A stretch of 64,000 bases of DNA from Escherichia coli (GTDB taxonomy: Bacteria > Pseudomonadota > Gammaproteobacteria > Enterobacterales > Enterobacteriaceae). Shown in pieces: positions 24,577 through 53,019 of this stretch. The notes beneath the pieces are model-generated. The model did not search any database, had not been told where the DNA came from, and saw nothing but the letters and a program-made list of their open reading frames with translations. The stretch lies in NCBI RefSeq assembly GCF_044324875.1, contig NZ_CP172186.1, one strand, 5' to 3'. The first letter of the stretch is position 1. Every line of letters starts with the position of its first letter. Position numbers and translations under genes: made by a program.

Positions 24577-26715
24577 ATGGACATTGAAATACGCCACTGC
24601 AATAACATCGTACGAGCACATATCACCCTCACTGCCGATAAACTGAACATTAAGTTTGCGCCAAATGGTACTGGAAAAAGTACGCTGTCACGGGCCATAA
24701 GCTGTGCGGCGCGGGACGACATTCAGGGACTACAGGCACTGATGCCCTTCCGGCTGCGCGGAGAAAACCCCGATAGCACCGGGCCCATTGTCATCGGTGC
24801 TGACGGGATTGGGGACGTGATGTGCTTCAACGAGGAGTACGTCAGTCAGTTTACGTTCCAACCGGACGAGCTCATCAGTGATAGCTTTAATATTCTTATC
24901 CGCAATCAAGCCCATGCGGAAAGAGAGCGTGAAATAGAAGAAATGACGCAAAAGATCCGGGCTGTTTTCACGGATCACACTGAGCTGAACTCTCTGATAG
25001 ACCATCTACAGGAACTCAGTAATGCTTTCAGATCAACCAGTTCCGGGATTTCACGTTCTTCAACCGGCATGAGAGGTCTGTCAGGCGGAAATAAAATACA
25101 CCACATTCCGGCTGGTCTTGAGAACTATCAACCCTACATCCGCAGTGAACGCCGCGTGGAATGGATTGACTGGCAGACAAAGGGACTCGAGTTTTCGCCC
25201 CTTTCGGATGGCTGCTGTCCGTTCTGTACCGGTGATATCACGGGAAAGGAAGCACAAATTCGCCAAGTCAGAGAGGAATACGATAAATCCACCATTAAAA
25301 ACCTGACCGCTATCATCAGACTGGTGGAAAACCTCGGTAATTACCTGACGGAGAGCGCCAGAGAACGCCTTCTGGCCATTACTATGCTTCAGAACGGTCC
25401 GGAAGCCGAACATATCGAGTACCTAGTGGCGTTGAAACGCCAGACCGATACGCTGACAGAGAAACTCACTGCGCTGAGAGGCCTGAATGTTTTCAGCCTG
25501 CAGGAACAGCAGAACGTTCGGGAGGTGCTCACTGCCAGGTTGATTGACCTGCAGTTCTTCCCTGATCTGCAATCCGAACTCATGCAGGGGATCACCGACA
25601 GACTGAACGCGGCCCTTATGGACCTGATAAACCTTGCCGGACCGCTGCAGGGAAAAATTAACCGGCACCGGGACAGCATGATCCGGCTGATCGCACAGCA
25701 CAAAACAAACATCAATAATTTCCTCACTTATGCAGGCTATAAATACAGGGTGGATATAGCCGGCGAGGGAGAGCAGAGAAAACTCAGGCTACGACACATA
25801 GATTTTGACGGGTACGTCAGCGGCGGTAGCCAGCATCTCAGCTATGGAGAACGGAACGCCTTTGCGATTGTGTTATTCATGTATGAATGCCTGTCAAAAA
25901 ACCCGGGACTGATTATCCTTGATGATCCCATATCTTCTTTTGATAAAAACAAGAAGTTTGCCATTCTTGAAATGCTGTTCAGACGTGCAAGTGGTGAATG
26001 CCTGAAGAACCGGACTGTACTTATGCTGACGCATGACGTGGAGCCTGTGATTGACACGCTGAAGTCAGTCAGAAGGTTGTTCAGTAATCAGGTGACCGCC
26101 TCCTGCCTGCGCCTGTCTGCTGGAGTCATAGAAGAATTACCTGTTAACGACGGCGATATCATGACATTCATGCAGATCTGCAAATCCATCACCGCGTCAG
26201 CAGACTGTGAGGAGATCATTAAGCTCATCTATCTTCGTCGCTACTTTGAAATCGTTGACGAACGTGGTGATGCTTATCAGCTTCTATCCAATCTATTCCA
26301 TCGACGCGTCGTCCCGCTGGATTATCGCGAGCCTGCCGCTGCGGGCTCGGGCTATCCCAAAATGGCTCCTGAGAAAATTCAGCAGGCCTTGCGGGATATC
26401 CGGGAGTATGTGGACAGTTTTGATTACCCGCGACTTCAGGCTCTCGTCAGCAGCCCAGATGAAATAAAAAACCTGTACCGTCGCTGTCGTAACGGCTATG
26501 AAAAACTGCAGGTATTCCGTTTACTGGAACTGGATCAGGACCATCCGGTAATACGAAAATTCGTTAACGAAACGTACCACATTGAAAATGAGTTCATCTG
26601 TCAACTAGATCCGTCCAGATTCGATCTCATCCCGGAGTACGTGATTATGGAATGTGACAAGCTCATCGCCCTGCCACCGGCAGCAAACCAGAGCTCGGTT
26701 GCCCGTATCGCTTGA
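24577..26715 (+). CDS. Solitary ABC-type ATPase with long coiled-coil insert containing a CxxC motif and an unassigned C-terminal domain (RloC/Rad50-like architecture); candidate defence protein
   Basis: 712 aa; Walker A FAPNGTGKST (aa 27-36); CPFC at about aa 209; signature-like LSYGER, Walker B LIILDDP, H-loop LMLTHD; last 220 aa without known motif. Confidence 0.6.
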   Translation: MDIEIRHCNNIVRAHITLTADKLNIKFAPNGTGKSTLSRAISCAARDDIQGLQALMPFRLRGENPDSTGPIVIGADGIGDVMCFNEEYVSQFTFQPDELISDSFNILIRNQAHAEREREIEEMTQKIRAVFTDHTELNSLIDHLQELSNAFRSTSSGISRSSTGMRGLSGGNKIHHIPAGLENYQPYIRSERRVEWIDWQTKGLEFSPLSDGCCPFCTGDITGKEAQIRQVREEYDKSTIKNLTAIIRLVENLGNYLTESARERLLAITMLQNGPEAEHIEYLVALKRQTDTLTEKLTALRGLNVFSLQEQQNVREVLTARLIDLQFFPDLQSELMQGITDRLNAALMDLINLAGPLQGKINRHRDSMIRLIAQHKTNINNFLTYAGYKYRVDIAGEGEQRKLRLRHIDFDGYVSGGSQHLSYGERNAFAIVLFMYECLSKNPGLIILDDPISSFDKNKKFAILEMLFRRASGECLKNRTVLMLTHDVEPVIDTLKSVRRLFSNQVTASCLRLSAGVIEELPVNDGDIMTFMQICKSITASADCEEIIKLIYLRRYFEIVDERGDAYQLLSNLFHRRVVPLDYREPAAAGSGYPKMAPEKIQQALRDIREYVDSFDYPRLQALVSSPDEIKNLYRRCRNGYEKLQVFRLLELDQDHPVIRKFVNETYHIENEFICQLDPSRFDLIPEYVIMECDKLIALPPAANQSSVARIA

Positions 26716-26816
26716 GCCACTGTTTTTGCCGCCGGAAGATAGGCTTTAGCTCCCTGATAGTCTGATCTTCGAAGATACCCTACAGTTTAGGACCGCTTAC
26801 TGTAGATATCTGTTAA

Positions 26817-26838
26817 AACAGCCCGTATACGGGCTGTT
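26817..26838. terminator. Hairpin between the ATPase gene and vapC copy 2
   Basis: ACAGCCCGTA/TACGGGCTGT perfect palindrome; T-run on the minus strand side. Confidence 0.5.
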
Positions 26839-26876
26839 TCTTGGTGCCCTTATCTCCTGACTTTGAAAAGAGTGTC

Positions 26877-27293
26877 TTACTTCACCCAGTCTTCCAGCAC
26901 CAGGTCAGGCACTCGCTCAAATTCTCTTGTATTATTCGTTACCAGTATCGCCCCGGCGGCGATGGCGTGCCCGGCAATCGCCGTGTCGTTCGGGCCGATC
27001 GGCGTCCCGGCCAGCCGCAGTGCCACTTTAATCTTCGTGGTGGCGTCTACTGCGGCGCGATCCCAGGGCAGGATGGCATCGAGGCGGGCGCAGAATTCAT
27101 CGACCAGTTGGACGTGACGTGGTGAGGCCTTTGGGCCGGTAGCCCCGAAGCGCATTTCAGAGTAGGTGATGGCCGAGACCACTATACGGTGGCCGCGTAG
27201 CACCGCCTGCTCCAGACGCTTCAGGACGGCTTCTGGCTGTTCACGCATGATGAACGAGCAGATACAGGTATCAAGCATATAAGTCTTGTTCAC
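26877..27293 (-). CDS. vapC: VapC toxin (PIN domain), copy 2 (divergent paralog)
   Basis: 138 aa; about 93 percent identical to copy 1. Confidence 0.9.
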   Translation of the reverse strand: MNKTYMLDTCICSFIMREQPEAVLKRLEQAVLRGHRIVVSAITYSEMRFGATGPKASPRHVQLVDEFCARLDAILPWDRAAVDATTKIKVALRLAGTPIGPNDTAIAGHAIAAGAILVTNNTREFERVPDLVLEDWVK

Positions 27294-27520
27294 AGGTTAA
27301 ATCGCCCTTCGTCGCTGACAACATCCTCGCGCTCCGCCATAAAATCTGGATCGGCTTTTTCGTACTCTAGGAATGATCCCCAGGTTGGCCGGACGGGGCG
27401 CAGGATGATGCTGTCCCCTTCCCGGACGATCTCGAGCTCGCTCACCCCCTCAAAATCCAGATCACGAGGCAGACGGATGGCGCGGTTGTTGCCATTTTTA
27501 AATATCGATACGGTTCTCAT
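27290..27520 (-). CDS. vapB: VapB antitoxin, copy 2
   Basis: 76 aa; paralog of 6953-7183. Confidence 0.9.
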   Translation of the reverse strand: MRTVSIFKNGNNRAIRLPRDLDFEGVSELEIVREGDSIILRPVRPTWGSFLEYEKADPDFMAEREDVVSDEGRFNL

Positions 27521-28079
27521 GTTCTTTCTCTCCCGAGCATATGGATATGTGAAACATATCCGGAATATTCAAAGCACCGGGTGTGTGCATATGTTTAGTA
27601 TAGGCAGATGTGTGGCATATGTATAGCGGTAGCATATGTAGATGCCAGGCATATGTTTAGCATATCCCTATTTCTTTCTTTTTTATCGGAGATCCGAAAA
27701 AAGGTTGTTCAGGATCTTCCTCTCCCCCCACACAACGCCACCTCCTGTAAGCACAACATGTGGTGCCGGATTCAGCTGCTGATGACACTATATGTTGTGT
27801 CATCTCCCTGACCTGTGATGCGTCGCGCAGGGGCGGAAAACAGCGATATGATGATTTCCTCAGCGTGGTACACTTCCGGAAAGTTGTGATATTCCGGAAA
27901 GTCGGATCTGACGGAAACGGCTCTCCGGTAATTTAACGGCGTGGTTATATGGATGCTTGTTATCATGGTGATGATGATAACGGCATGATGTTATCAGACG
28001 GCGTGACGGTAAGGGCAGTGATGATGGATGACGTTATCGCATGACCGTCCCTGCCCGGAAAAGAAAAAAGGAGTCACCC

Positions 28080-28493
28080 ATGTTTTTTATTAAGAATGAA
28101 GGTCAGGCTGTCGCCAGAACGGATTACTGGCAGTCTGTACAGGCGCAGGCCGGATATGTCTACCTCAGCTGGAATGCCGGCGCAGCCAGGCTGCTTGTCC
28201 CGGATGCGGCAAAACATTTACTCAGGGAGATGCGGGGGGCTGAGTACGTCATCATCAGTAAGGGAACGCTGCATGGCCGCGATGCGCTGGAACTGATATT
28301 TGAAGACGGCAGCGATGCGCCGTTCGTGATCCACATGCTGAGCGAGCAGTGCGATCGCCTGCTCCCCGAAAACAACCAGGGCGGGGGTTTTGTTGTCACC
28401 GTCTGGACGCGTGGCGGTAACCAGCTCCGTTATCCGGGAAAGTACCGTGTTGTGGAAAACCTGCCCGACGTTTCCCCGTGGAGTGAACACTGA
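28080..28493 (+). CDS. Hypothetical protein upstream of recombinase gene
   Basis: ATG at 28080 with AAAGGAG RBS; 137 aa. Confidence 0.6.
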   Translation: MFFIKNEGQAVARTDYWQSVQAQAGYVYLSWNAGAARLLVPDAAKHLLREMRGAEYVIISKGTLHGRDALELIFEDGSDAPFVIHMLSEQCDRLLPENNQGGGFVVTVWTRGGNQLRYPGKYRVVENLPDVSPWSEH

Positions 28494-28494
28494 T

Positions 28495-29280
28495 ATGCAG
28501 CACCTGCCGGCACCGATCCACCATGCCCGGGATGTCGCTCAGCTTCCTGTTGCCATCGATTATCCGGCAGCGCTGGCACTCCGCCAGATGTCGATGGTTC
28601 ATGATGAACTGCCAAAATACCTGCTGGCCCCTGAAGTGAGCGCCCTGCTCCATTACGTCCCGGATCTGCGCCGCAAGATGCTGCTGGCCACACTGTGGAA
28701 CACCGGTGCGCGCATTAATGAAGCACTGGCGCTGACGCGGGGGGATTTTTCGCTTGCGCCCCCGTATCCGTTTGTGCAGCTGGCCACTCTGAAGCAGCGG
28801 ACAGAAAAAGCCGCCAGGACGGCAGGAAGAATGCCCGCCGGTCAGCAGACTCACCGGCTGGTTCCGCTTTCCGACACCTGGTACCTCAGCCAGCTGCAGA
28901 CGATGGTGGCCACACTGAAAATCCCCATGGAACGGCGTAATAAACGAACAGGCAGGACAGAGAAAGCGCGGATCTGGGAAGTGACGGACAGAACGGTCAG
29001 GACCTGGATTGGGGAGGCGGTTGCCGCCGCTGCCGCTGATGGTGTGACGTTCTCTGTCCCGGTCACGCCACATACGTTCCGCCATTCCTATGCGATGCAC
29101 ATGCTGTATGCCGGTATACCGCTGAAGGTCCTGCAGAGCCTGATGGGGCATAAGTCCATCAGCTCAACGGAGGTCTACACGAAGGTGTTTGCACTGGATG
29201 TCGCGGCGCGCCATCGTGTGCAGTTCGCTATGCCGGAAGCCGATGCGGTAGCGCTGATAAAACAACTTGAGAGGCGTTAA
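28495..29280 (+). CDS. Tyrosine site-specific recombinase (phage-integrase family)
   Basis: 261 aa; C-terminal HTFRHSYAMHML...LMGHKSISSTEVYTKV (H-x-x-R, H and Y catalytic residues). Confidence 0.8.
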   Translation: MQHLPAPIHHARDVAQLPVAIDYPAALALRQMSMVHDELPKYLLAPEVSALLHYVPDLRRKMLLATLWNTGARINEALALTRGDFSLAPPYPFVQLATLKQRTEKAARTAGRMPAGQQTHRLVPLSDTWYLSQLQTMVATLKIPMERRNKRTGRTEKARIWEVTDRTVRTWIGEAVAAAAADGVTFSVPVTPHTFRHSYAMHMLYAGIPLKVLQSLMGHKSISSTEVYTKVFALDVAARHRVQFAMPEADAVALIKQLERR

Positions 29281-29519
29281 AAAGCCGTATTCGCGGTTCA
29301 GTCAAGGGGGAGCTGGTGCATCCATCTGTGGAAGATAGAGCACCAAACTCATAGAGGCCACGTTCTCAGGCCAGAACAGTCTTATATCTCTGGCGCTGAC
29401 AACCCATAGTACTTGCCTGGATGGGAAACTCTTCTTGTGCTGAGCGTAAGAGCCATCTGCCGGAACGCTTCCTCGCCAGTTCGCTCGCTACGCACAGTTA
29501 CATGGCTGCGGCGAGGGCT

Positions 29520-29880
29520 GCCTGATTCTAATAATGATATTTCAGCATGATAGCAGCAATAAAATAGATTGCAGCTATCATGCTGTACACATACGGCCTA
29601 GCGCTCTGCTTATGTTATGCTATCTGCAATCTTGCGGCAATCTTGCTTCATCTGTCGATGCGATTCTGAATGAGGTTTCTTTTATTGTTAACGTGACACA
29701 AGTATTCGGCTGTCAATTCCAGCACTCTGCTAAGTAGCAAGATTTAATCTTGCTACTAGATTTTTTATTGTTGCAATCTTGCTGCAAGCTGTTATCTTGT
29801 TCTGGAAGAGTTACTCTACCTAACCTCAATCTGGTTTATATTGATGTTTGCTGCAAGATAGCAGCAAGTAAAGGGGGCTA
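29520..29880. promoter_or_regulatory. Array of TTGCTGCAAGAT-like repeats upstream of parA (centromere/operator-like)
   Basis: At least 8 direct and inverted copies of GCAATCTTGC / TTGCTGCAAGAT in 360 bp. Confidence 0.55.
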
Positions 29881-29881
29881 A

Positions 29882-30514
29882 ATGGCCTGGATAGTTGGTT
29901 TTATTTCTCAGAAAGGTGGTGTGGGCAAAAGCACTAAAGCGAGAGCGTTAGCGCGTGAAGCATCCGCCTGTGGTATCAAAACAAAATTAGCTGATCTCGA
30001 CTTGGAACAGGCAACGAGTGCTGAGTGGCATCGTAGACGTCTGTCAGCTGGTTTGTCACCGGTTGCTTCAGTTGAAGTGTTTTCAACAGCAAAGCAGGCG
30101 ATAGAATCTGCCGGCGATTTTGACCTTCTGATTCTTGATGGCCCTGCTCGTGCAAGTAAAGGTACTTCAGAAATTGCTAAGGTCGCCGACCTTATCGTCC
30201 AGCCAACGGGGGCCTCCCTTGACGATCTTGTCCCGGCAATTAAAGTTTTCAACGCGTTGGTAAAAGAAGGTATACCACGTTCAAAACTGGTCTTCGCTTT
30301 AAGCCGGGTAGGTACCGAAGCGGAAGAGCTGGATGCTCGTGCATATATCAGTGAAGCAGGTTATGAAACTTTATCTGGATGCCTTTTTGAGAAGCCAGCA
30401 TACAGAAAAGCGATGAATTCAGGACTCGCTGTGACAGAAACACGTTATAAAGGTTTAAACGAGAGAGCTGATGAACTTATCCAGGCACTCATCGATAAGA
30501 TTGGAGAAGAGTAA
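29882..30514 (+). CDS. parA: ParA-family partition ATPase (small, type Ib)
   Basis: 210 aa; deviant Walker A KGGVGKST. Confidence 0.85.
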   Translation: MAWIVGFISQKGGVGKSTKARALAREASACGIKTKLADLDLEQATSAEWHRRRLSAGLSPVASVEVFSTAKQAIESAGDFDLLILDGPARASKGTSEIAKVADLIVQPTGASLDDLVPAIKVFNALVKEGIPRSKLVFALSRVGTEAEELDARAYISEAGYETLSGCLFEKPAYRKAMNSGLAVTETRYKGLNERADELIQALIDKIGEE

Positions 30515-30888
30515 TGGCTGATGCGTCAAAACTTAGAACTAAAAGAACCCGTAGTGGGTTGGGGGTACCCCCGGGCCCCGACGAAGTGGCTACCAGCTTG
30601 AATGCGCCTGAGATAGCTCCGGCTGTCGCTGCCACTGATGTTCAGAGACAACAGGCAGACTCATCGCCAGTGCACCATGAGCCTGTGGTTACGCAAACTG
30701 TGACCGAGGTATATACCCGCCGCGATGGCCGTTCTGCCAGAAAAACAAACAGGACGCTGGCATTTGCAACACGTGTCACACCTGCTTTCGACCAAGAGAT
30801 CCGGGATATCGCAGAGCGTGAGGGGTTGAAACTGGTGGAAGTTCTGGAAAAAGCAGTTGAGGCATATAAGGAAAAACAGGGCTATTAA
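30514..30888 (+). CDS. Small centromere-binding protein, ParG/ParB-like (C-terminal RHH-like)
   Basis: 124 aa; translationally coupled to parA; basic N-terminus. Confidence 0.6.
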   Translation: MADASKLRTKRTRSGLGVPPGPDEVATSLNAPEIAPAVAATDVQRQQADSSPVHHEPVVTQTVTEVYTRRDGRSARKTNRTLAFATRVTPAFDQEIRDIAEREGLKLVEVLEKAVEAYKEKQGY

Positions 30889-30894
30889 TCCGGG

Positions 30895-31000
30895 ATGCAG
30901 CAATCTTGCTGCATTCTTTTTTTGTGTGCAATCTTGCAGCAAGATTTATGCTAGATAAATGCTAGATTGCTGCAAGATAAATGATATAATGCTCAAATTG
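30895..31000. repeat. Second cluster of the GCAATCTTGC-type repeats downstream of the ParA operon
   Basis: GCAGCAATCTTGCTGCA, GCAATCTTGCAGCAAGAT, GATTGCTGCAAGATAA. Confidence 0.55.
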
Positions 31001-31110
31001 AGTAGTTAACTGCCCCAGGTAAGTACGCAGCTTGAGTACTTACCTGTGGTTTATGAACGTATTTACTTAATGTGAGTAGTTATTGGGTGAAGATTAATAC
31101 TCAAATTGAG
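31000..31110. promoter_or_regulatory. parC-like repeats upstream of parM (ParR binding site / promoter)
   Basis: Repeated CTCAAATTGAGTA / GAGTAGTTA motifs in the 110 bp before parM. Confidence 0.5.
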
Positions 31111-31126
31111 TATAAATGGAGATGGT

Positions 31127-32101
31127 ATGAGAATTTTTTGCGATGATGGTTCTACAAATGTGAAACTTGCCTGGTTTGAAGGCAAGACGCTGAAAAGTGC
31201 GGTATCAGTGAACTCTTTTCGCCATAACTGGAAAGTCGAGGGCTTAGGCAGCAGTCGTACCTATAACTATTTGCTTGATGGCCGTAAATATACCTACGAC
31301 CCGGTCAGCGAAGATGCGATCAGCACGACTCATATTGAGTATCAGTACTCTGATACAAATGTGTTGGCAGTTCACCACGCATTACTGAACAGTGGAATTG
31401 AACCCCAGGAGATCGATCTCACCGTTACGTTACCTATCAGCGAGTTTTACACGGCCGACTGCCAGAAAAATACGCTTAACATTGAGAGAAAAATTCGCAA
31501 CCTGATGCGGGAAGTCACCCTGAACAAAGGGGGAACTTTTACCATTAAAAGCGTTGAAGTGATGCCTGAATCACTCCCGGCTGTATTTACTCGCCTAGTT
31601 GCTGACAATGTTGGTCAGTACGAAAAATCATTGGTTATCGATCTCGGTGGTACAACTCTGGATGTCGGGGTTATTGTTGGCCAGTTTGAGGATGTTTCGG
31701 CTGTACATGGTAATCCTGATATTGGTGTATCAATGGTCACGAAAGCCACGCTCACTGCACTGAAAATGGCCAGCAGTGATACCAGTCCAATGATTGCTGA
31801 CGAGTTGATCAAAAACAGGAAGAACCTGGATTTTGTGGGGCAGGTTGTAAATGAGGTTTCTAAACTAAATCTGGTGCTGGATACCATTGATACAGCGATA
31901 AATAAACTGGGCGAGCTAGTTGTTGATGATTTGCTGCAGTATCGAAACGTAAACCGCGTATATATTGTCGGAGGCGGGGCTGCACTCATTGCTGATGCTG
32001 TTCGTAAGGCATGGAACCACCTTGGCGAAAAGGTGGTTCTTATGGATGAACCTCAGACAGCGCTGGTCCAGGCTATTGCACGCTTCAAAGCGGAGGAGTA
32101 A
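31127..32101 (+). CDS. parM: ParM/StbA actin-like partition ATPase
   Basis: MRIFCDDGSTNVKLAWF... resembles R1 ParM MLVFIDDGSTNIKLQW...; 324 aa from ATG 31127. Confidence 0.85.
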   Translation: MRIFCDDGSTNVKLAWFEGKTLKSAVSVNSFRHNWKVEGLGSSRTYNYLLDGRKYTYDPVSEDAISTTHIEYQYSDTNVLAVHHALLNSGIEPQEIDLTVTLPISEFYTADCQKNTLNIERKIRNLMREVTLNKGGTFTIKSVEVMPESLPAVFTRLVADNVGQYEKSLVIDLGGTTLDVGVIVGQFEDVSAVHGNPDIGVSMVTKATLTALKMASSDTSPMIADELIKNRKNLDFVGQVVNEVSKLNLVLDTIDTAINKLGELVVDDLLQYRNVNRVYIVGGGAALIADAVRKAWNHLGEKVVLMDEPQTALVQAIARFKAEE

Positions 32102-32104
32102 TCG

Positions 32105-32497
32105 ATGTACGACGGCGAAGAAAGGAAAAAACTTTCACTCTACCTTCACCCGGAGGACTCTGCCGATTGTCTTGCACTGGCTGAAATCGAAACTGTTCCC
32201 CGGAAAAAACGGGGGGAGTTATATCGGCAGGCTTTGATAACCGGCCTGATAATGCATCAGCTTGATGAGAGAATTCCCGCCGTGTTAACCGCGCTATTCA
32301 CCAGAGAACTGAATGCGGATGAGGTCATTAGTCAGATTGCCAGGATAACAGGCTGGAAACCCTCCTCCGGTGATTTAAAAGAGGTACTGAAGGCGTTGGG
32401 AGGGCTTCAGAGTACAGTTTCACCAGAACTCTCTCAGGATGACGGTGAACAGGCCCGTCTGAAAGCGGCTAGGGTGAAGATGCAAAACCTAATCTAA
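32105..32497 (+). CDS. parR: ParR/StbB partition adaptor
   Basis: 130 aa immediately downstream of parM; N-terminal RHH-like region. Confidence 0.7.
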   Translation: MYDGEERKKLSLYLHPEDSADCLALAEIETVPRKKRGELYRQALITGLIMHQLDERIPAVLTALFTRELNADEVISQIARITGWKPSSGDLKEVLKALGGLQSTVSPELSQDDGEQARLKAARVKMQNLI

Positions 32498-32652
32498 AAA
32501 AGTCTCGCTCCGTGAAACCTGCAAAATTTCTCGGGGTGTGCGGCTTAATTTTTAGATTTCCGCGTTTCCCGTCATTTGAGTCAATGGAGTGCTGGTTGAC
32601 AGCTCCCTGCTCTGAAGGACGGGGATTCCCACATATGCAGCCAGATTTCCGG

Positions 32653-32760
32653 CTAGTGTGGTTTCAGACGTTGTTCGATTTCATTCTGTAGCGCCTGAAG
32701 TGTGCCTGATTTGAGGTTTTTTGTGCTCTGGCGGTCGAAAAGAATTTCAATGCGGATCAT
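32653..32760 (-). CDS. DinI-like small ORF (35 codons before an in-frame TAG)
   Basis: MIRIEILFDRQSTKNLKSGTLQALQNEIEQRLKPH*; SD AGGGAG 9 nt upstream; read-through would give ...MWESPS...; LexA box in promoter. Confidence 0.4.
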   Translation of the reverse strand: MIRIEILFDRQSTKNLKSGTLQALQNEIEQRLKPH

Positions 32761-32781
32761 GTTCTCATCTCCCTTTTATTT

Positions 32782-32801
32782 TACTGTGTATATATACAGT
32801 A
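32782..32801. promoter_or_regulatory. LexA (SOS) box overlapping a sigma70 promoter on the minus strand
   Basis: TACTGTGTATATATACAGTA (CTGT-N8-ACAG); -35 TTGACT (revcomp of 32825-32830) and -10 TAGAAT (32801-32806) with 18-bp spacer. Confidence 0.75.
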
Positions 32802-33153
32802 TTCTAATAACTGAATCCACACACAGTCAAATGTCATTGTTGTGACTAAAAAACGCTCAATTCTCTGAGAGTGTGGCTGTATGCCTGCTGTGGACTGCTG
32901 TGTCCAGCTTATCCACAGCATTTTGTGCACGGTTCTGTGGACAAAATACCTGGTTACCCAGGCCGTGCCGGCACGTTAACCGGGCTGCATCCGATGCAAG
33001 TGTGTCGCTGTCGCCGGCCTTCTCACCCGGTCACGTTTCGTCGTTCCTCCTCCACGAGCTGCGGCTTCGGGGCCGCACCTGCATTCGTATGCGGTCGCCC
33101 GGTTACAGGTGCGGCACGGCCTGATGGAGGCCGCATGTGAGAGGAGAATTCCC

Positions 33154-34080
33154 ATGCCAAACTGGTGCTCAAATCGTATGTATTTTTCTGGTGAACCGGC
33201 ACAGATTGCTGAGATTAAACGACTGGCCAGCGGTGCAGTCACACCGTTTTATCGCCGCGCCACAAATGAAGGTATTCAGCTGTTTCTGGCCGGAAGTGCC
33301 GGACTTCTGCAGACCACTGAAGATGTGCGGTTTGAACCATGTCCCGGACTGACGGCTGCCGGACGTGGCGTTGTATCGCCGGAGAATATCGCGTTCACCC
33401 GCTGGCTGACATACCTGCAGGACGGTGTACTGCTGGATGAGCAAAACTGCCTGATGCTGCATGAACTCTGGCTGCAGAGCGGTACTGGACAGCGTCGCTG
33501 GGAAGGATTACCGGACGATGTCAGGGATACCATCACCGCACTTTTCACCGCAAAAAGAGGTGACTGGTGTGGCTTCTGGAGTAACGAAGATGTATCGGTG
33601 TGGTGGAACCGTCTGTGTGACAACGTACTGCCGGAAAAAACCATGCCGTTTGACCTGCTGACGGTTCTGCCCACCCGCCTGGATGTTGAAGTGAATGGCT
33701 TTAACGGTGGTGTTCTGAACGGTGTTCCTTCTGCATATCACTGGTATACGGAACGGTATGGCGTGAAGTGGCCTGTGGGGTATGAGGTGAATATCAGTAA
33801 TCAGGGAGACAACTTCATTAAGGTGGATTTCGACACGCCGTGGTGTCAGCCGGAAAGCGACGTTATTGCAGAATTAAGCCGCCGTTTCAGCTGCACGCTG
33901 GAGCACTGGTATGCCGAACAGGGCTGTGATTTCTGTGGCTGGCAGTTGTATGAGCGCGGAGAGCTCGTTGATGTGCTGTGGGGGGAACTGGAATGGTCTT
34001 CCCCGACAGATGACGATGAGCTGCCGGAAGTCACCGGACCTGCGTGGATAGTCGACAATGTGGCGCATTATGGCGGATGA
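33154..34080 (+). CDS. Conserved leading-region protein of unknown function
   Basis: ATG 33154 with GAGGAG RBS; 308 aa; Cys/Trp-rich. Confidence 0.6.
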   Translation: MPNWCSNRMYFSGEPAQIAEIKRLASGAVTPFYRRATNEGIQLFLAGSAGLLQTTEDVRFEPCPGLTAAGRGVVSPENIAFTRWLTYLQDGVLLDEQNCLMLHELWLQSGTGQRRWEGLPDDVRDTITALFTAKRGDWCGFWSNEDVSVWWNRLCDNVLPEKTMPFDLLTVLPTRLDVEVNGFNGGVLNGVPSAYHWYTERYGVKWPVGYEVNISNQGDNFIKVDFDTPWCQPESDVIAELSRRFSCTLEHWYAEQGCDFCGWQLYERGELVDVLWGELEWSSPTDDDELPEVTGPAWIVDNVAHYGG

Positions 34081-34462
34081 AGTATGACGGAGACGGGCGG
34101 GCAACTGCCCGTTTCTTTTCCGGTAAAGGATGTCGCCATGCTCCTCTTTTTACTGCGCCGGCTGACGCGGCGCGGCATAAACGCTGCCTGTGGTCAGTGT
34201 CCCGCGTCCGGTGGGCACGGGACGGGCGCTTTTACCGCTCCCGGCTGGCGTCGGTGACAGTGTACGCCAGCCTGTCGCCCTTTTCTGATGAACGCCCTTC
34301 AAGCCGCTTTCGCGGCATAACCTTGCCGTCAAACAGACGACGGCTGCGGTATTCCACGGTCGGCCTGACCCGTTACCGGACGCGGTGAACAGCCCACAGG
34401 CAGCGGGGAACGGGCACCACAGGGGTGCCCTCCCGGTGCCCCCTGTAAGAGAAGGAGCTGTT

Positions 34463-35146
34463 ATGTCCCGTTTTATCCTGGGTGACTGCGTGCGTGTTAT
34501 GGCCACGATTCCTGATAACGCCATTGATTTCATATTAACCGATCCGCCATATCTCGTCGGTTTCCGTGACCGTTCCGGGCGCACCATTGCCGGTGACGTT
34601 AATGATGACTGGCTGCAACCGGCCTGTAATGAGATGTACCGCGTACTCAAAAAAGACGCGCTGATGGTCAGCTTCTACGGCTGGCACCGTATTGACCGCT
34701 TTATGGCGGCCTGGAAACGCGCCGGATTCAGCGTGGTTGGCCACCTGGTCTTCACCAAAAACTACACATCCAAATCTGCGTATGTCGCGTACCGCCACGA
34801 ATGCGCTTACATCCTGGCAAAGGGCAGTCCGGCCCGGCCCCGTAACCCGCTGCCGGATGTGCTGGGCTGGAAATATTCGGGCAACCGCCATCACCCGACG
34901 GAAAAGCCCGTTACCAGCCTGCAACCGCTGATTGAGAGCTTCACACATCCGAACGCGATTGTGCTGGATCCGTTTGCAGGCAGCGGTTCAACCTGCGTGG
35001 CCGCCCTTCAGTCCGGACGCCGGTATATCGGTATCGAGCTGCTTGAACAGTATCACCGTGCCGGACAGCAACGACTGGCCGCCGTGCAACGGGCCATGCA
35101 GCAGGGGGCCGCGAATGATAACTGGTTTATGCCGGAGGCTGCGTAA
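34463..35146 (+). CDS. Orphan DNA N6-adenine/N4-cytosine methyltransferase (beta class)
   Basis: DPPY motif (ILTDPPYL) preceding FAGSGS AdoMet motif; no adjacent restriction gene. Confidence 0.8.
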   Translation: MSRFILGDCVRVMATIPDNAIDFILTDPPYLVGFRDRSGRTIAGDVNDDWLQPACNEMYRVLKKDALMVSFYGWHRIDRFMAAWKRAGFSVVGHLVFTKNYTSKSAYVAYRHECAYILAKGSPARPRNPLPDVLGWKYSGNRHHPTEKPVTSLQPLIESFTHPNAIVLDPFAGSGSTCVAALQSGRRYIGIELLEQYHRAGQQRLAAVQRAMQQGAANDNWFMPEAA

Positions 35147-35368
35147 ATGAACTATGCCGGACACGAAAAACTTCGCGCCGACGTGGCGGAGGTGGCCAAT
35201 GCCATGTGCGACCTGCGTACAACCATGAATGAGATGGAGCGGCGGTACAGCTTTAATGCTGACACCCTGCCGGAACGTCTGGTGCGTCAGACGTTGTTTC
35301 GCGCAAACCGCCTCCTGATGGAGGCATATACCGAAATTCTGGAACTGGATTCCTGCTTCAAAGATTGA
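35147..35368 (+). CDS. Hypothetical protein
   Basis: 73 aa, translationally coupled to the methyltransferase gene. Confidence 0.5.
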   Translation: MNYAGHEKLRADVAEVANAMCDLRTTMNEMERRYSFNADTLPERLVRQTLFRANRLLMEAYTEILELDSCFKD

Positions 35369-35381
35369 GAAGGAGACGAGA

Positions 35382-35816
35382 ATGTACGGAACATGCGAAA
35401 CGCTATGCCGGGCGCTGGCAGCAAAGTATCCGGGAGATACGCCGCTGATGCTGGTTATCTGGTCCCCGGAAGAAATTCAGGCCCTCGCTGACGGAATGGA
35501 TATTTCCCTGTCCGATCATGAAATCAGGACTGTCCTGGCGCGGCTGGCGGACATCCCGGAAGACCAGCGGACTGAGTCCGGTATTTCTTCCGGCGTGGCG
35601 ATGGAGATTATCAGCAACGTGAGCGAAAACCGCCAGGTGACCGTCCCGGCTGAACTGCTGGCGTCCCTGATTCAGACCGCCGAACAGGCACTGTGGAAAC
35701 GTGAATGGGCCGCCCGTGATTACGGCCTCGCCGTCCCGGAATGCGTCACCCGCCGTCAGGCGGTGGTTAATCAGGCCCGCATCCTGCTGAAAAACAACCC
35801 ACACGAAAACGACTGA
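35382..35816 (+). CDS. Hypothetical leading-region protein (paralog of 37518-37937)
   Basis: 144 aa; shares MY.T....I..VL......P......V......D...A.D.......E....RL pattern with the ORF at 37518. Confidence 0.6.
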   Translation: MYGTCETLCRALAAKYPGDTPLMLVIWSPEEIQALADGMDISLSDHEIRTVLARLADIPEDQRTESGISSGVAMEIISNVSENRQVTVPAELLASLIQTAEQALWKREWAARDYGLAVPECVTRRQAVVNQARILLKNNPHEND

Positions 35817-35860
35817 TGTTATCGCCGCCTTCGGGCGGCGATTCAGGGAGACCATGAATC

Positions 35861-36631
35861 ATGAACAAAACGCTGAATGCACTGGTTTGTCACCACGCCC
35901 GTAACCTGCTGCTGGCGCAGGGCTGGCCGGAAGAGACGGATGTTGACCAGCGTAACCCGAAGTATCCGGGCTGGATCAGCATTTATGTTCTGCTGGATGC
36001 GCCCCGGCTGGCGACGTTACTTATCAACCGTCACGGCGGCGTACTGCCGCCGCTCCTGGCCTCCGCCATTCACAAACTGACCGGAACCGGGGCGGAAGTT
36101 GTACTGTCCGGCAGTCAGTGGCAGTCGCTGCCGGTACTTCCGGCAGACGGAACGCAGGTGTCTTTCCCGTATGCCGGAGAATGGCTGACCGAAGACGAAA
36201 TCAGGGCAGTTCTTGATGCAGTGCGCGATGCGGTACGCAGTGTCAGTTGCCGGGTGACAGAAGATGCGCGGCGTATCAGGGCGGCGCTGACCACAACCGG
36301 TCAGACGTTGCTGACCCGCCAGACGCGGCGCTTTCGCCTGGTTGTGAAGGAAAGCGATCACCCCTGCTGGCTCGATGAAGACGACGAAAACCTGCCCGTG
36401 GTGCTCGATGCCATCCTGAACCGGGGCGCTCGTTTTTCTTCGGTGGAAATGTATCTGGTCAGTGAGTGTGTGGAGCATATCCTGTCCAGTGGGCTGGCCT
36501 GCGATGTGCTGCGTATACCGGATGAACCGCCCCGCCGGTGGTTTGACCGTGGTGTTCTGCGGGAGGTGGTCCGGGAAGCCCGGGCCGAAATCCGCAGCAT
36601 GGCGGATGCCCTGGCAAAAATCCGGAAATGA
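35861..36631 (+). CDS. Hypothetical leading-region protein
   Basis: 256 aa ORF with coding-like composition. Confidence 0.55.
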
Positions 36632-36690
36632 TGACGCTGGCGGGGAAAAATCTCCGCCTTTTCCAGCCGGTCCCCGGAAAGAGCAAAAGG

Positions 36691-37030
36691 ATGTCGCCGC
36701 AGGCTCCGCTTTACTCGGCCATGCGGGGCATGGCCTTGTGGGTTTTCAGTTATGTGGCCTCAGCGTCGTGTGCGGGCTGTGCCGTGCCTCCATCGTAGCC
36801 GGGCTTCTGCGGGCGGGTTGCAAGGTAAGGTGAACCGCTGCGGTCACCCGGTCCCTCCTTCCCGTCTGCCGTGATTTTCCGGTCGTTCACCCGCTCAGAT
36901 TTCGCGGTCTCACCCTCCAACTCCCGCCAGCCGTGTGCGTCAGGCTGCGGCTTCCCTTGCGCCCTTGCAACCCTGCAGGCCCGGCAAAGATGGAGGCACG
37001 GCACCGCCCGGTGTCGCGGAATATGTGAAC
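36691..37030 (+). repeat. GC-rich direct repeat family A, copy 1 (candidate single-strand promoter/ssi element upstream of klcA)
   Basis: About 340 bp, roughly 95 percent identical to 48927-49265; dense inverted repeats. Confidence 0.6.
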
Positions 37031-37045
37031 AACGGAGGAAATCCC

Positions 37046-37471
37046 ATGCAGTATGCGAAACCTGTCACCCTGAACGTTGAAGAGTGCGACCGCCTTTCTT
37101 TTCTGCCTTACCTGTTTGGCAACGATTTTCTGTATGCCGAGGCGTATGTGTACGCGCTGGCGCAAAAAATGATGCCGGAATATCAGGGAGGCTTCTGGCA
37201 TTTCATCCGCCTGCCGGACGGTGGCGGTTACATGATGCCGGATGGCGACCGTTTTCATCTGGTCAACGGTGAAAACTGGTTTGACCGCACTGTGAGTGCT
37301 GATGCCGCAGGCATCATTGTTACGTCTCTTGTGATTAACCGCCAGTTGTGGCTGTACCACGACAGCGGGGATGCGGGACTGACACACCTGTACCGGATGC
37401 GTGATGCGCAGTTGTGGCGTCACATCGAATTTCACCCCGAATGCAACGCGATTTACGCGGCACTGGACTGA
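37046..37471 (+). CDS. klcA: KlcA/ArdB-family antirestriction protein
   Basis: MQYAKPVTLNVEECDRLSFLPYLFGNDFLYAEAYVY...; ATG 37046 with GGAGGA RBS. Confidence 0.8.
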   Translation: MQYAKPVTLNVEECDRLSFLPYLFGNDFLYAEAYVYALAQKMMPEYQGGFWHFIRLPDGGGYMMPDGDRFHLVNGENWFDRTVSADAAGIIVTSLVINRQLWLYHDSGDAGLTHLYRMRDAQLWRHIEFHPECNAIYAALD

Positions 37472-37517
37472 TTAACGGACGGGGCGGCAATGCCGCCCCT
37501 GTAAAGGAGACGAGAAC

Positions 37518-37937
37518 ATGTACTGTACTGTTAAAGAAATTATCCGCGAAGTGCTGAATACAGACGTGCCGGACAGTGAATGTGTTTTTGCCGTGGTGCT
37601 GACCCGCGGGGATGTGCGCCACATAGCCCGGGACTGGAACCTGTCAGACGATGAGCTGGAAACCGTCATGCAGCGGCTGGACGATGCTTTTGTATATGGC
37701 GCATGTGACAGAGTTGTTTCCGATATTGTCAATGAACTGATGGAGGAAAAGCGCGTAAACCGTCTTGTAACAGTTCCTGCGGTGCTGCTGGAAAAAGTGA
37801 TGGTGATGGCTGGTAGTGAAATTTATCGCCTCCATGCTGTAGGGAGCGAGAACGGGGGCGACGGTGACGCATTTGTCAGGGAAGAACGTGAGATTATGCG
37901 GGTAATGCGTCAGGCGCTGGACGGGGAGAACGGGTAA
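37518..37937 (+). CDS. Hypothetical leading-region protein (paralog of 35382-35816)
   Basis: 139 aa. Confidence 0.6.
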   Translation: MYCTVKEIIREVLNTDVPDSECVFAVVLTRGDVRHIARDWNLSDDELETVMQRLDDAFVYGACDRVVSDIVNELMEEKRVNRLVTVPAVLLEKVMVMAGSEIYRLHAVGSENGGDGDAFVREEREIMRVMRQALDGENG

Positions 37938-38128
37938 TGAATATCAGCACGGAAACCCGCGAAATTCTGCGTAATTACAGGGCCGTGATTAATGCGCGGC
38001 GTCGTGAAATGGGGCAGAAACCGCTCACCACCGCGCAGATTGTTGATGAAATCTGTGATTTTGTGGCGAATCAGCAGGCGGTTTTCCTCGGTGGTCACTA
38101 TATCCTTCAGGGCAGCAGGCACAGGTGA
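37937..38128 (+). CDS. Hypothetical small protein
   Basis: 63 aa; start overlaps the previous stop (ATGA). Confidence 0.45.
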   Translation: MNISTETREILRNYRAVINARRREMGQKPLTTAQIVDEICDFVANQQAVFLGGHYILQGSRHR

Positions 38129-38299
38129 TACAGGGGCAGGCGGTGGAGGCCGCCTGTCAGCCCGCGCGAAAACCCCTGGCAGGCTGGCGCCTGCCGGAAG
38201 GGATGCGGGCCACGCTGGCGCGTCGCCCGTTACCCTTCCTGTTGGTGACAGGCGTTGTTTCAGGAAGTACCTGTTACAGACCTGTCGTTAAAGAACCTT

Positions 38300-38870
38300 C
38301 TTACACATGCGCCCCTTCGGCTCCCGGCTGCCTGGCGGCATCCGGTCGTCAGGCCCGACTCCGACAGGCAGCTGCTGGCGCACCCGCCAGTCTCCGCCGA
38401 ACCCGCTGGCGCGGTTTCGGGCTGTCGCTACGGTCCGATGCGTGAAAACCCGGGCTTGCAGCGACCGTTCCGGTCGCGCCGCCTCTGTCGCGCCGTGACC
38501 TGCGCTCCCTGCACACCTGACGGTGTGTGAGGAAACTGCGCCTGATGGCGCAGCAGTCCTCCCTCCTGCCGCCACCTCTGCGGCCTGTTTCCCGCTGTGG
38601 ACTTTCCGGGGGGCAGACGTAACCCCCTCCCGTTCCATCTGTCCAGGGTGAGATGCACCGGCCACAAAATTTTTAGCCATGAACCCGGCAAAAAATTTTG
38701 CGTCCGCCCCCGGACAGCTGCCCCGTGAGGCGGTAAACGGGCCCCCATCGGAAAGGTCCACTGCGGGGAGAAACCCCTGTGAAGTGGACGGCAGGAGGAG
38801 CTTTCGCTCCTCTGAAGGGGCACATGAACGTCCCGTCGCCGGTATCCGGTTTATCTCACATCTTTCAGTC
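38300..38870 (+). repeat. GC-rich direct repeat family B, copy 1 (upstream of ssb)
   Basis: Shares long near-identical blocks with 49960-50500 and 53020-53370 (e.g. CTTCGGCTCCCGGCTGCCTGGCGGCATCCGGTCGTC, GGAAAGGTCCACTGCGGGGAGAAACCCC). Confidence 0.6.
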
Positions 38871-38881
38871 AGGAGGTTCTT

Positions 38882-38920
38882 ATGAGTGCACGTGGTATCA
38901 ACAAGGTCATCCTCGTCGGG
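38882..38920 (+). CDS. ssb: ssb exon 1 (codons 1-13: MSARGINKVILVG)
   Basis: ATG 38882 preceded by AGGAGG; coding sequence interrupted by intron beginning GTGCG at 38921. Confidence 0.75.
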
Positions 38921-41581
38921 GTGCGCCGTTGAAGCGCGGTGTTTTATGGAGTGTTGCCTGAAAAGCAACATGGCTTAGTGGTATAGCCATTGCATACTGT
39001 GGTTAGCCTTGCTTGGTAACAGGCTCGGAGATCCTGAAAAGGAGAGGTGAACATAGCATCCACAGAAAAGGGTGGTGAATATGGAAATCGTTATAAGTAT
39101 CACCATTCAATGCAAGATGTATATGGATAAACTGGGTTTGTTGAAGTCGAGATCTATGTGGGAAACAGGAAACCAATAACGCAGAACGATTGAAGCGTTA
39201 TTCCCGTACTAGCACAAGAAATCCGTCCGACGTTGATTGTGACCACTCTAACGGGCCAGCTATTGATGAAATAGTTAAACGATCGAAAGACATCCTAAGT
39301 ACATCGCATCTCCACACCGTGAAACTACGGGACTACCTAAACTGGATTTATACCCAGCATGGTAGCGGAGTCTCCATAGTACTCAAGGTCGGCCTGTAAT
39401 GGGTTCCGGCAGTCCGCATTATACGGAAGCAGCAAAGGTATAAATCAACCGGAAGGAAGATGAAAGCCTCACAGTGCTGCGGGGAAGGGAGACAGTTGTT
39501 AGATACATCAATCTCTAAGAGGAGGGTTAGCCAATGCTGCCTGATGAACTTGAGAAAAGATTAGATGGAATTGAGGATGCTTCAAAAAAAGGGTATCCAG
39601 TACGTAATCTATACAAAATTGCGTGTGAGCCCGGACTGTGGCTGCAAGCCTACGTGAATATACGGGCCAATGCAGGTGCACTGACTCAAGGTGTATCAAC
39701 AGATACCATTGATGGCTTTTCTATCGAAAGAGCAGAGAAGCTGGCAAAAACATTGCGGAGTAGAGAATACGTAGCGAAACCTGTACGCAGAGTTCAGATC
39801 CCAAAAAAGGACGGAAAAACCAGACCGCTGGGGATTCCAGGTGGAGACGATAAACTGGCGCAAGAAGTAGCAAGAATTATTCTGGAAAGGGTTTATGAAC
39901 CAGTATTCTCTGAACACTCTCATGGATTCAGACCAAAACGTTCGTGTGAAACTGCGCTCAGATCTATTCGTCCAGTCTGGAACGGAGTTAAATGGATCGT
40001 GGATGTTGATATCAAAGGTTTCTTTGACAATATCCCCCACAAACTATTGCTGAATACACTGGCAGAGAAAATTAAGGATAAGAATTTCCTGAAATTAATC
40101 GAACAGTGGCTGAAGGCAGGATATGTGGACAATTGGAAATACCATCGCTCATATTCTGGCACGCCACAAGGTGGGATAATTTCTCCCTTACTGGCAAATA
40201 TATACCTCGACAAACTGGACCGTTTTGTAGAACAGAATTTAATTCCTGCATATACAAGCGGTACAAAACGAAGAGCGAATCCAGATATGAACAGGCTGGC
40301 CCATAAGATTCATAAACTACGAAAGAAAGTAGACGGTATGGCAACTGATTCTGAATCAGAAAAAGAAGCCATAAAGAAAGAAATTGAACGACTGCTTGAA
40401 GAAAAACGTTCTATACCATCTCAGGTCATGAACGATCCAAACTTCAGGCGTATGTACTATGTTCGATATGCTGATGACTTCGTAATCGGTGTCATCGGCT
40501 CGAAGAAAGATGCTGAACATATATCAAGACAGGTCAGAAACTTTATTACTACTTCACTGGGATTGGAAGTTAATGAAGCAAAGACCAGGATCCGCCATAT
40601 CTCAGAAGGAGTTAATTTTTTAGGCTATGAAATCAGACAGGCAGATGCAAAGAAATTGCTGAAGCAGAAAATGCAAGGGCGGCACGCTCTCCGGAGATCC
40701 ACCACAGGAATTGTGCAGCTCTTCGTTCCTGACAATATAGCCGCTAAATTTTGTCACCAAAAGAAATATGGCTGTTATGAGAATGTGAAGGCTGTACATC
40801 GTTCAAGTCTACAAAATCTCAGTGAAGCTGAAATTGTTCTGACTTTCAACGCGGAAATGCGCGGATTGGCGAACTACTACAGTCTGGCGCTGGACATGAA
40901 ATATAAATTATCAAAATTATATTTCATATGGCAAATAAGCCTTTTTAAGACCCTGGCGAATAAACGACGTAGTTCAGTGAATAAAGTCGCCAAATCGCTA
41001 CGGCAAAATAATGGAGATCTGGCTATTACCGTTCAGGCCAAAAATGGATCCCGAAAGATTGAGGTTTTCAAACTCAAACATGTCAATCGCAACCGAACAA
41101 CGATTGTCGATACGGAACCGAGAACCGCACATATCACAACCCGCACAACAGAGATCATGCGTCGATTAGGGGCAAGGATCTGCGAGTATTGTGCGAAGAC
41201 TGGGCGCTGCGAAGTACATCATGTCAGAAAGCTAAAAGACCTGAAGAAAGGTCGTAAGGCCGGATATAAACCCAGCTTGTGGCAACTAATGATGATCGCA
41301 CGCCGCCGGAAAACGATGATTTTGTGCGCAAGTTGCCACGACAAGTTACATAGCGGAAAACTACCCGATTTGAGACAGGAAAAGGGAAGAATACTCCTGC
41401 AACCACCTGTCTCAAGCGGGGATTCTGCTAAATGAGTTTATCCCCAATAAGCTAGCAATGGAGAGCCGTATGCACTGAAAGGTGCACGTACGGTTCGGAG
41501 GGGGGGTAACGGTGATCTAACTCAAGATAAGCAGGACATATTCGCCATTTATCTTGAAAGACCACACGTACCCTACCCTAC
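38921..41581 (+). mobile_element. Group II intron (2661 bp) inserted in ssb
   Basis: 5' GTGCG, 3' ...AC; domain V-like hairpin GAGCCGTATGCACTGAAAGGTGCACGTACGGTTC at about 41462; encodes RT/maturase/HNH protein; flanking exons splice in frame. Confidence 0.85.
39534..41435 (+). CDS. Group II intron-encoded protein (reverse transcriptase - maturase - HNH endonuclease)
   Basis: 633 aa; RT motifs incl. YADDFVIGV; C-terminal HNH CEYC...HHV...CASCHDKLH. Confidence 0.9.
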   Translation: MLPDELEKRLDGIEDASKKGYPVRNLYKIACEPGLWLQAYVNIRANAGALTQGVSTDTIDGFSIERAEKLAKTLRSREYVAKPVRRVQIPKKDGKTRPLGIPGGDDKLAQEVARIILERVYEPVFSEHSHGFRPKRSCETALRSIRPVWNGVKWIVDVDIKGFFDNIPHKLLLNTLAEKIKDKNFLKLIEQWLKAGYVDNWKYHRSYSGTPQGGIISPLLANIYLDKLDRFVEQNLIPAYTSGTKRRANPDMNRLAHKIHKLRKKVDGMATDSESEKEAIKKEIERLLEEKRSIPSQVMNDPNFRRMYYVRYADDFVIGVIGSKKDAEHISRQVRNFITTSLGLEVNEAKTRIRHISEGVNFLGYEIRQADAKKLLKQKMQGRHALRRSTTGIVQLFVPDNIAAKFCHQKKYGCYENVKAVHRSSLQNLSEAEIVLTFNAEMRGLANYYSLALDMKYKLSKLYFIWQISLFKTLANKRRSSVNKVAKSLRQNNGDLAITVQAKNGSRKIEVFKLKHVNRNRTTIVDTEPRTAHITTRTTEIMRRLGARICEYCAKTGRCEVHHVRKLKDLKKGRKAGYKPSLWQLMMIARRRKTMILCASCHDKLHSGKLPDLRQEKGRILLQPPVSSGDSAK

Positions 41582-44426: not shown

Positions 44427-44864
44427 GTGATGAAAACTGAACTGACCCTGAATGCCCTGCAGTCCATGAACGCACAGGAATATGAAGATATCCGTGCTGC
44501 GGGAAGCGATATGCGCCGTAATCTCACTCACGAGGTGATGCGTGAAGTGGACGCACCGGCTAACTGGATGATGAATGGCGAGTATGGCAGTGAGTTCGGG
44601 GGCTTTTTCCCCGTCCAGGTTCGTTTCACGCCAGCCCACGAACGTTTCCACCTGGCATTATGTTCGCCGGGAGACGTCTCTCAGCTCTGGATGCTGGTTC
44701 TGGTGAGTGGTGGTGGACAGCCTTTCGCCGTCGTTCAGGTGCAACATATCTTCACGCCTGTCGCGATCAGTCACACGCTGGCGCTCGCCGCGACACTTGA
44801 TGCGCAGGGATACAGTGTTAACGACATCATTCATATTTTGATGGCAGAAGGAGGTCAGGCATGA
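44427..44864 (+). CDS. psiB: PsiB (plasmid SOS inhibition protein B)
   Basis: About 145 aa; stop TGA overlaps the psiA ATG (ATGA at 44861-44864). Confidence 0.8.
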
Positions 44865-44990
44865 GCGCATGCAAAATGGCATCTGAATCGATCGCAGTTT
44901 GGCATTCGAATCGATCATGATTTGGCATCCATCTCCGATCACAGTTTGGCATCACAATCGATCACGATTTGGCATGCTTCCGATCATTGA

Positions 44991-46637: not shown

Positions 46638-46653
46638 CAGAAGGAACAACAGT

Positions 46654-47409: not shown

Positions 47410-47508
47410 AAAGCGGTAGAAAAAGTTAAGTTCCCGGTTGATCGAATGGATGCGAATCGCTGATCGGACTTCGATGCCAATCCGTGATCGAATAGAGCGG
47501 AATACGCA

Positions 47509-52909: not shown

Positions 52910-53019
52910 TTTTTTGGTTGTAAATGTCGTGCGGTTTTCTCTGTTTTCACCTGTGCGGGAGTGGTGTGCCAGTGACCACCACATGCCATTGTTGTGCCGT
53001 CGTTTTTCTTCAGTCGCGC

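Follow-up and report, generated by a model that had tools for sequence, protein, structure and literature searches.

The impCAB operon is the SOS-inducible, UmuDC-like mutagenic repair operon of the I-complex plasmids (R64, TP110, pTF2). Its carriers are the IncI1/I-complex plasmids TP110, R64, ColIb-P9 and pTF2, together with the Shigella virulence plasmid. The gene for ImpC, like that for DinI of E. coli, is LexA-controlled, and full-length ImpC is predicted to have the same beta-alpha-beta-beta-alpha order of elements as E. coli DinI (structure 1GHH; RecA-DinI complex 7YWA), whose C-terminal acidic helix is the RecA-interacting element. Heterology indices in the IncI1 plasmid pTF2 are 1.60 for the impCAB LexA box (TACTGTATATACATACAGCA) and 13.49 for a second predicted site; the IncI1 imp promoter is SOS-regulated, a lexA-defective strain having 21-fold more ImpC and 9-fold more ImpA (PMC12211044). 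The operon is toxic when overexpressed, and the intact impC of I-complex plasmids shows a median dN/dS of 0.001 (PMC10286972). In maps of IncK2 plasmids and of pCT, 'impC' has also been used as a landmark (PMC5350095). The imp promoter-operator, the homology of ImpC to DinI and the truncated 'impC' of IncK-type plasmids are all on record already.

We analysed a 64-kb stretch of E. coli DNA (64,000 nucleotides; hereafter, the window), which is collinear with plasmid pLH50-c-A (IncK2/Z; CP100501.1 from position 22520) at >99.9% identity across positions 25346-38920. The locus of interest shares with impCAB the promoter, both LexA sites, the ribosome-binding site and the first 42 codons of impC, at 96-97% nucleotide identity over 238 bp, and it too lies at the leading-region edge, divergent from a DUF1281 gene. 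In contrast, the window's impC is cut at codon 42-43 and has an amber at codon 36, and both impA and impB are absent. In R64drd (typed IncI1/B/O), the DUF1281 gene is divergent from impC (82 aa)-impA-impB, and a convergent parR-parM pair follows. In pN11 (typed IncI-gamma/K1), the DUF1281 gene is again divergent from impC-impA-impB, which is followed by a soj gene. The order in the window is instead DUF1281, the truncated impC (impC') and convergent parR-parM (Table 1). We concluded that the locus is very probably a LexA-repressed impCAB promoter-operator attached to a non-functional impC stump. It is best labelled an impC remnant or pseudogene whose SOS promoter is intact, rather than a new SOS peptide or a freshly inactivated dinI-like gene, the two readings that the original prediction had offered.

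Table 1. Features of the imp remnant and its neighbours, in window positions.
Feature	Position	Strand	Remarks
parM	31127-32101	–	parMR occupies the place of the module after impB in R64
parR (partitioning/stability protein)	32105-32497	plus	convergent with impC'
Tail downstream of parR, travelling with the parMR module	32498-32563	none	about 93.5% identity to Klebsiella IncFII/FIA plasmids
Junction filler, 69 bp	32564-32632	none	188 records, all with the identical junction; homology of others starts at 32563 (query position 78)
In-frame continuation past the amber	32581-32652	minus	23 codons (PEIWLHMWESPSFRAGSCQPALH) plus TGA at 32583-32581
impC-derived coding segment	32633-32760	minus	about codons 1 to 42-43; match to R64drd and pN11 stops at 32633 (blastn)
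impC' open reading frame	32653-32760	minus	35 codons plus amber TAG (32655-32653); product MIRIEILFDRQSTKNLKSGTLQALQNEIEQRLKPH
Shine-Dalgarno sequence AGGGAG	32769-32774	minus	8 nt before the ATG at 32760; read from the sequence
Primary LexA (SOS) box of the imp promoter	32782-32801	minus	TACTGTATATATACACAGTA on minus, TACTGTGTATATATACAGTA on plus
Sigma-70 promoter P_imp	32801-32830	minus	TTGACT (32830-32825), 18-nt spacer, TAGAAT (32806-32801)
Weak second LexA-like site	32809-32828	plus	AACTGAATCCACACACAGTC; overlaps the -35 hexamer and spacer
DUF1281 gene (yfaB/ycjA type)	33178-34080	plus	divergent from P_imp; first gene of the leading-region block

The primary LexA box is a 20-bp CTGT-N8-ACAG palindrome with one mismatch to the consensus TACTGTATATATATACAGTA. 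It overlaps the -10 element of the promoter, such that the first T of the box is the last T of the hexamer TAGAAT. This was the sole site in the 64 kb with three or fewer mismatches to the LexA consensus, and none of 100 dinucleotide-preserving shuffles contained a match. The promoter agrees with consensus at 10 of 12 positions, was the only promoter-like site found by a promoter scan of 32300-33200, and is kept in R64 and pN11, where it lies upstream of full-length impCAB. As in an impCAB/umuDC-type operon, a LexA-box promoter lies upstream of impC', and the weak site AACTGAATCCACACACAGTC is identical to the second predicted impCAB site of pTF2. The box allele of the window's lineage differs from that of R64 at 3 positions and is 1 position from the perfect consensus; the window's exact promoter/box allele was shared in PLSDB with pLH50-c-A only. 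The Shine-Dalgarno sequence reads AGGAAG in two relatives. The original prediction had described a near-consensus LexA box in a minus-strand TTGACT / 18 bp / TAGAAT promoter, an AGGGAG ribosome-binding site and a 35-codon frame that ends in TAG and stays open for 23 further codons, and every one of these elements was recovered at its predicted place. We concluded, by homology with the characterized IncI1 imp promoter, that the box is the impCAB operator, and we predict that it acts as an SOS operator.

Downstream of the start codon the resemblance to impCAB soon stops. Homology to R64 DNA is unbroken from 35200 to 32633 (93%) and then ends (local blastn), and a column-by-column alignment placed the junction within 32637-32633, where R64 reads TGG CTG CGT ATA GAC CAG... 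and the window reads TGG CTG CAT ATG TGG GAA.... A tblastn search of the whole 64-kb window with R64 ImpC returned residues 1-43 only, and the true C-terminus of ImpC (...LLEEIWQDDSWLPAA) is absent from the locus. Neither ImpA nor ImpB was detected in the 64-kb window by tblastn with the R64 queries; that is, no UmuD-like impA and no Y-family polymerase gene impB follow impC', and parR comes directly next. The distance from the DUF1281 gene to parR is 0.68 kb in the window versus ~2.4 kb in R64. The window and R64 carry different parMR alleles, with almost no DNA similarity between them (local blastn).

We searched PLSDB by megablast and obtained matches to 2,609 plasmid records, of which 186 covered 80% or more of the query. 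When the query was tightened, the match in about 2,300 records was confined to window positions 32870-32633 (query positions 1-238), at 95-97% identity, and the feature beneath this match is annotated as 'DinI-like family protein' or impC. The same junction was present in 186-188 PLSDB records, which encode a 59-aa form with TAC at codon 36, and ~2,240 records had the full 82-aa ImpC. The junction plasmids were typed as IncK2/Z, IncI-gamma/K1 and, for some, IncF, and the plasmids with full-length ImpC were IncI1 where checked. Compared with the plasmids annotated with a 59-aa 'impC protein', the window has the identical junction and tail at 97-99% DNA identity, but its codon 36 is TAG rather than TAC, which shortens the product to 35 aa.

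The DNA beyond the junction falls into two parts. The 69-bp filler was found in no plasmid outside the same-junction group by distant-mode blastn of PLSDB, and local blastn did not find it in the imp regions of R64 and pN11. The tail next to parR has relatives elsewhere, and those Klebsiella IncFII/FIA plasmids whose homology begins at 32563 carry the window's parMR allele. A 52-bp core of this tail (32512-32563) is present in many Klebsiella plasmids (1,353 matching records listed); in the single such record examined, the core follows a fragment of umuC and a gene for a relB/stbD antitoxin. As a separate observation, this 52-bp element recurs at 85-90% identity in many plasmids of Klebsiella, Enterobacter and others, in unannotated DNA, and it may mark a site of recombination or a boundary at which modules are repeatedly joined.

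The reading frame of impC' belongs to the DinI/ImpC family by descent, as the original prediction had supposed: its residues 1-35 are identical to those of R64 ImpC, and the DNA of 32870-32633 has 96-97% identity to impC and its promoter in ~2,300 plasmids. A proposed alignment with DinI/ImpC succeeded for the N-terminal part, but the read-through product leaves impC at codon 42-43. Past the amber, codons 37-42 are still impC, and the remainder is non-impC junction sequence. It includes the motif 'MWES', which had been thought reminiscent of the DinI C-terminus; we rejected this idea because the motif lies beyond the junction, the true ImpC C-terminus is EEIWQDDSWLPAA, and the likeness is coincidental. 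In pETEC_73 and most relatives, Tyr (TAC) stands at codon 36, the sense codon that had been suggested as a check, and gives a 59-aa frame that is annotated as a hypothetical protein or 'impC protein' (e.g. WP_000618107.1).

We determined the distribution of the two alleles with 41-mers centred on codon 36, so that a mismatch at the centre leaves no 28-nt seed for megablast. With TAC, the 41-mer matched 2,408 PLSDB records, 169 of them exactly (truncated type) and 2,239 with one mismatch (full-length type). The TAG 41-mer matched three PLSDB records (pLH50-c-A, pAA of C700-09 and S50 plasmid A), and, among the complete RefSeq E. coli genomes, pLH50-c-A and pN51a. On the TAG plasmids the locus is left unannotated by NCBI PGAP. 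In a collection of 15 billion proteins, the exact 35-aa product occurred on 553 contigs as 'protein impC' or 'DNA-damage-inducible protein I', and the 59-aa product on at least 1,000 contigs as 'impC protein'. From this distribution, we judge that the amber is a later, lineage-restricted C>G change (TAC>TAG) in an already truncated gene. Since impC homology ends at codon 42-43, the amber is a secondary lesion in a remnant that had been truncated earlier. We could rule out a simple nonsense mutation in an otherwise intact dinI-like gene, for read-through would yield a 59-aa chimera whose impC homology stops at 32633. The claim of fresh inactivation fails in the same way, as the gene was dead before the amber arose, with the 3' half of impC, impA and impB all missing.

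Profile and structure comparisons indicated how little of the protein is left. Full-length ImpC aligned with the E. coli DinI structure 1GHH over residues 3-79 (E = 6.8e-6), and its AlphaFold2 model (pLDDT 84) has strands E2-9, E39-46 and E50-54 and helices H18-32 and H59-74. Against the NCBIfam DinI profile (PRK10597), full-length R64 ImpC matched positions 1-77/81 (E = 1.8e-10), the 59-aa product positions 1-36/81 (E = 7.8e-4, 19.8 bits) and the 35-aa product positions 1-30/81 (E = 0.036, 14.5 bits); Pfam DinI (PF06183) matched the truncated product at model positions 3-24/63 (E = 0.0088). Thus a significant match over the whole ~80-aa domain was not obtained for the truncated products, whose matches are sub-threshold and confined to the N-terminal third. 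Compared with DinI, the window product retains about the first 35 (or 41) residues, corresponding to profile positions 1-36/81, and ends at residue 35 without the complete beta-alpha-beta-beta-alpha fold or the C-terminal acidic helix. According to the model, the 35-aa product retains nothing of the DinI fold beyond strand 1 and helix 1, and the 59-aa form would add four residues of strand 2 before unrelated sequence. The 35-aa peptide lacks the C-terminal acidic helix, so it should have no DinI/ImpC activity.

We compared eight truncated-type plasmids to ask where the region varies, noting that the numbers are small. Variable sites made up 20/280 of the upstream intergenic region, 1/29 of the stretch from -35 to -10, 7/20 of the LexA box, 5/21 of the 5' UTR, 3/126 of impC' codons 1-42 and 3/53 of the post-junction tail of the frame. 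Variation across the region was thus lowest in the first 126 nt of the frame. The three differences within codons 1-42 were all non-synonymous or nonsense (I2L, N15K, Y36*), with no synonymous one among them, and the tail showed the amino-acid-changing differences A50V and G51R among relatives. Within the LexA box, variation affected 0/8 arm positions versus 7/12 others (hypergeometric p ~0.01, our own calculation), and the CTGT/ACAG arms were invariant in 10 relatives. Several box alleles are common to truncated and full-length impCAB plasmids; therefore, the conservation of the arms need not mean that the truncated lineage itself has been under selection. Four box alleles occur among the five sequences with TAG (the window and four plasmid records). 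In one of these alleles, that of S50 plasmid A, loss of 2 bp (TA) from the box spacer gives CTGT-N6-ACAG, which should abolish binding given the spacing requirements of LexA. In AR_0077 the -10 hexamer is TAGAAA. The -35 and -10 elements, box arms, ribosome-binding site and ATG are intact in the window and in most truncated relatives. The low variation and intact signals could reflect residual constraint, or else recency and recombination with full-length impCAB plasmids; as read from these alignments, the pattern favours a slowly decaying relic. Separately, no stretch of the region varied more among relatives than the (TA)n core of the LexA box, a pattern that suggests slippage-prone or palindrome-associated mutation.

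We read the history as follows. An ancestral replacement or deletion fused impC, at codon 42-43, with unrelated DNA next to the parR 3' end, removing the last 40 impC codons and all of impA and impB, a loss of ~1.8 kb from the operon. Later, in a small sub-lineage, a C>G change converted Tyr36 (TAC) to amber (TAG). LexA presumably continues to bind the box and to keep the promoter repressed. Upon SOS induction, a short transcript would be made, whose translation would give a 35-aa peptide without function; because no terminator was detected, transcription would go on into the convergent 3' end of parR. The element is probably a decaying relic, carried along with the parMR module on one side and the leading region on the other. 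Loss of ImpAB has deprived this lineage of its plasmid-encoded error-prone polymerase, a point that bears on claims of SOS mutagenesis from such resistance plasmids.

An alternative is that the orphaned LexA promoter has been co-opted, either as the source of an SOS-induced antisense transcript into parR-parM that modulates partitioning, or with its putatively high-affinity box acting as a LexA sink. A scan found no intrinsic terminator between impC' and the 3' end of parR, where RNA folding gave weak hairpins only; the 191-nt downstream RNA folds somewhat better than its shuffles (z = -2.79), and the promoter and box arms are conserved, all of which would suit such a role. However, impB and parR are already convergent in R64, with stop codons 1-2 nt apart, so the arrangement is ancestral and not a new design, and among the relatives the box spacing is destroyed in one and the -10 weakened to TAGAAA in another. 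We consider co-option improbable. The same low probability attaches to the broader proposal that the orphan SOS promoter of the ~190 impAB-less plasmids drives antisense transcription into parMR or expresses an ImpC N-terminal fragment with a new activity; if true, DNA damage would be coupled, through the co-opted promoter or the fragment, to plasmid segregation or to the control of RecA.

We regard it as very unlikely that the stump is a functional SOS-induced micro-protein, whose 59-aa or 35-aa form, with the N-terminal half of ImpC/DinI, acts on RecA or polymerase V in some novel manner. Some ~190 plasmids of several incompatibility types have kept the promoter, operator, ribosome-binding site and start codon, codons 1-41 are near-invariant at the nucleotide level, and the product is found on at least 1,000 contigs, as might be expected of a working gene. 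Yet the product is without strands 2-3 and the C-terminal helix H59-74, its profile matches are sub-threshold, the substitutions in the conserved part are all non-synonymous or nonsense and the tail is variable. Moreover, the amber takes off 24 further residues in the window's lineage, and the operator spacing is broken in S50 plasmid A. That the amber is instead read through or suppressed, so that hosts still make the 59-aa product, is scarcely credible: the frame does stay open for 23 codons past the TAG, but the 64-kb window has no tRNA gene of any kind and hence no plasmid-borne amber suppressor, no programmed read-through signal is known for the stop context TAG-C, and the 59-aa product is itself a chimera lacking the ImpC C-terminus.

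Several other features of the window were recorded. The intergenic region between P_imp and the DUF1281 gene (32861-33123) ends in an imperfect inverted repeat, with 32959-33002 matching 33076-33123 at 80% over 49 nt. The same region, between P_imp and the DUF1281 gene, holds the sole perfect DnaA box of the window (TTATCCACA, 32909-32917, plus strand), and a box with 1 mismatch lies 19 nt away on the opposite strand (32936-32944). Across the window, 14 DnaA-like boxes were found versus 12.2 expected, which is not above chance. A search for known RNA families in 31000-35000 gave none above threshold. The single sub-threshold match was to the small RNA 'Erse' (Rfam; 34228-34423, minus strand; 19.6 bits versus a gathering score of 138, E = 0.013), which sits between the DUF1281 gene and a methylase gene and is probably due to chance.

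The leading region contains three copies of a ~330-500-bp repeat, 80-86% identical (38313-38812, 49964-50457 and 53010-53337), whose positions would fit candidate ssi/Frpo-type single-strand promoter elements lying upstream of genes of this region; the intergenic region upstream of P_imp showed no similarity to these three repeats. A group II intron (38921-41581) lies inside the plasmid ssb gene, with the flanks ...GINKVILVG and RLGNDPEV...; it starts with GTGCG and ends with CCTAC. Its reading frame (39534-41435, 633 aa) matched the group II intron reverse transcriptase/maturase family TIGR04416 (E = 1.3e-92), and the intron is absent from the near-identical pLH50-c-A. The leading region had also been described as encoding psiB and psiA. 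The first is present and intact (44427-44864), but psiA is disrupted by an IS21-family element (44870-47508; istA 44991-46637, istB 46411-47409), which begins directly after psiB, 9 nt into psiA. The psiA/IS junctions read ATGAGCGCA, then the element, then AGCGCACG, with an apparent 6-bp duplication, AGCGCA.
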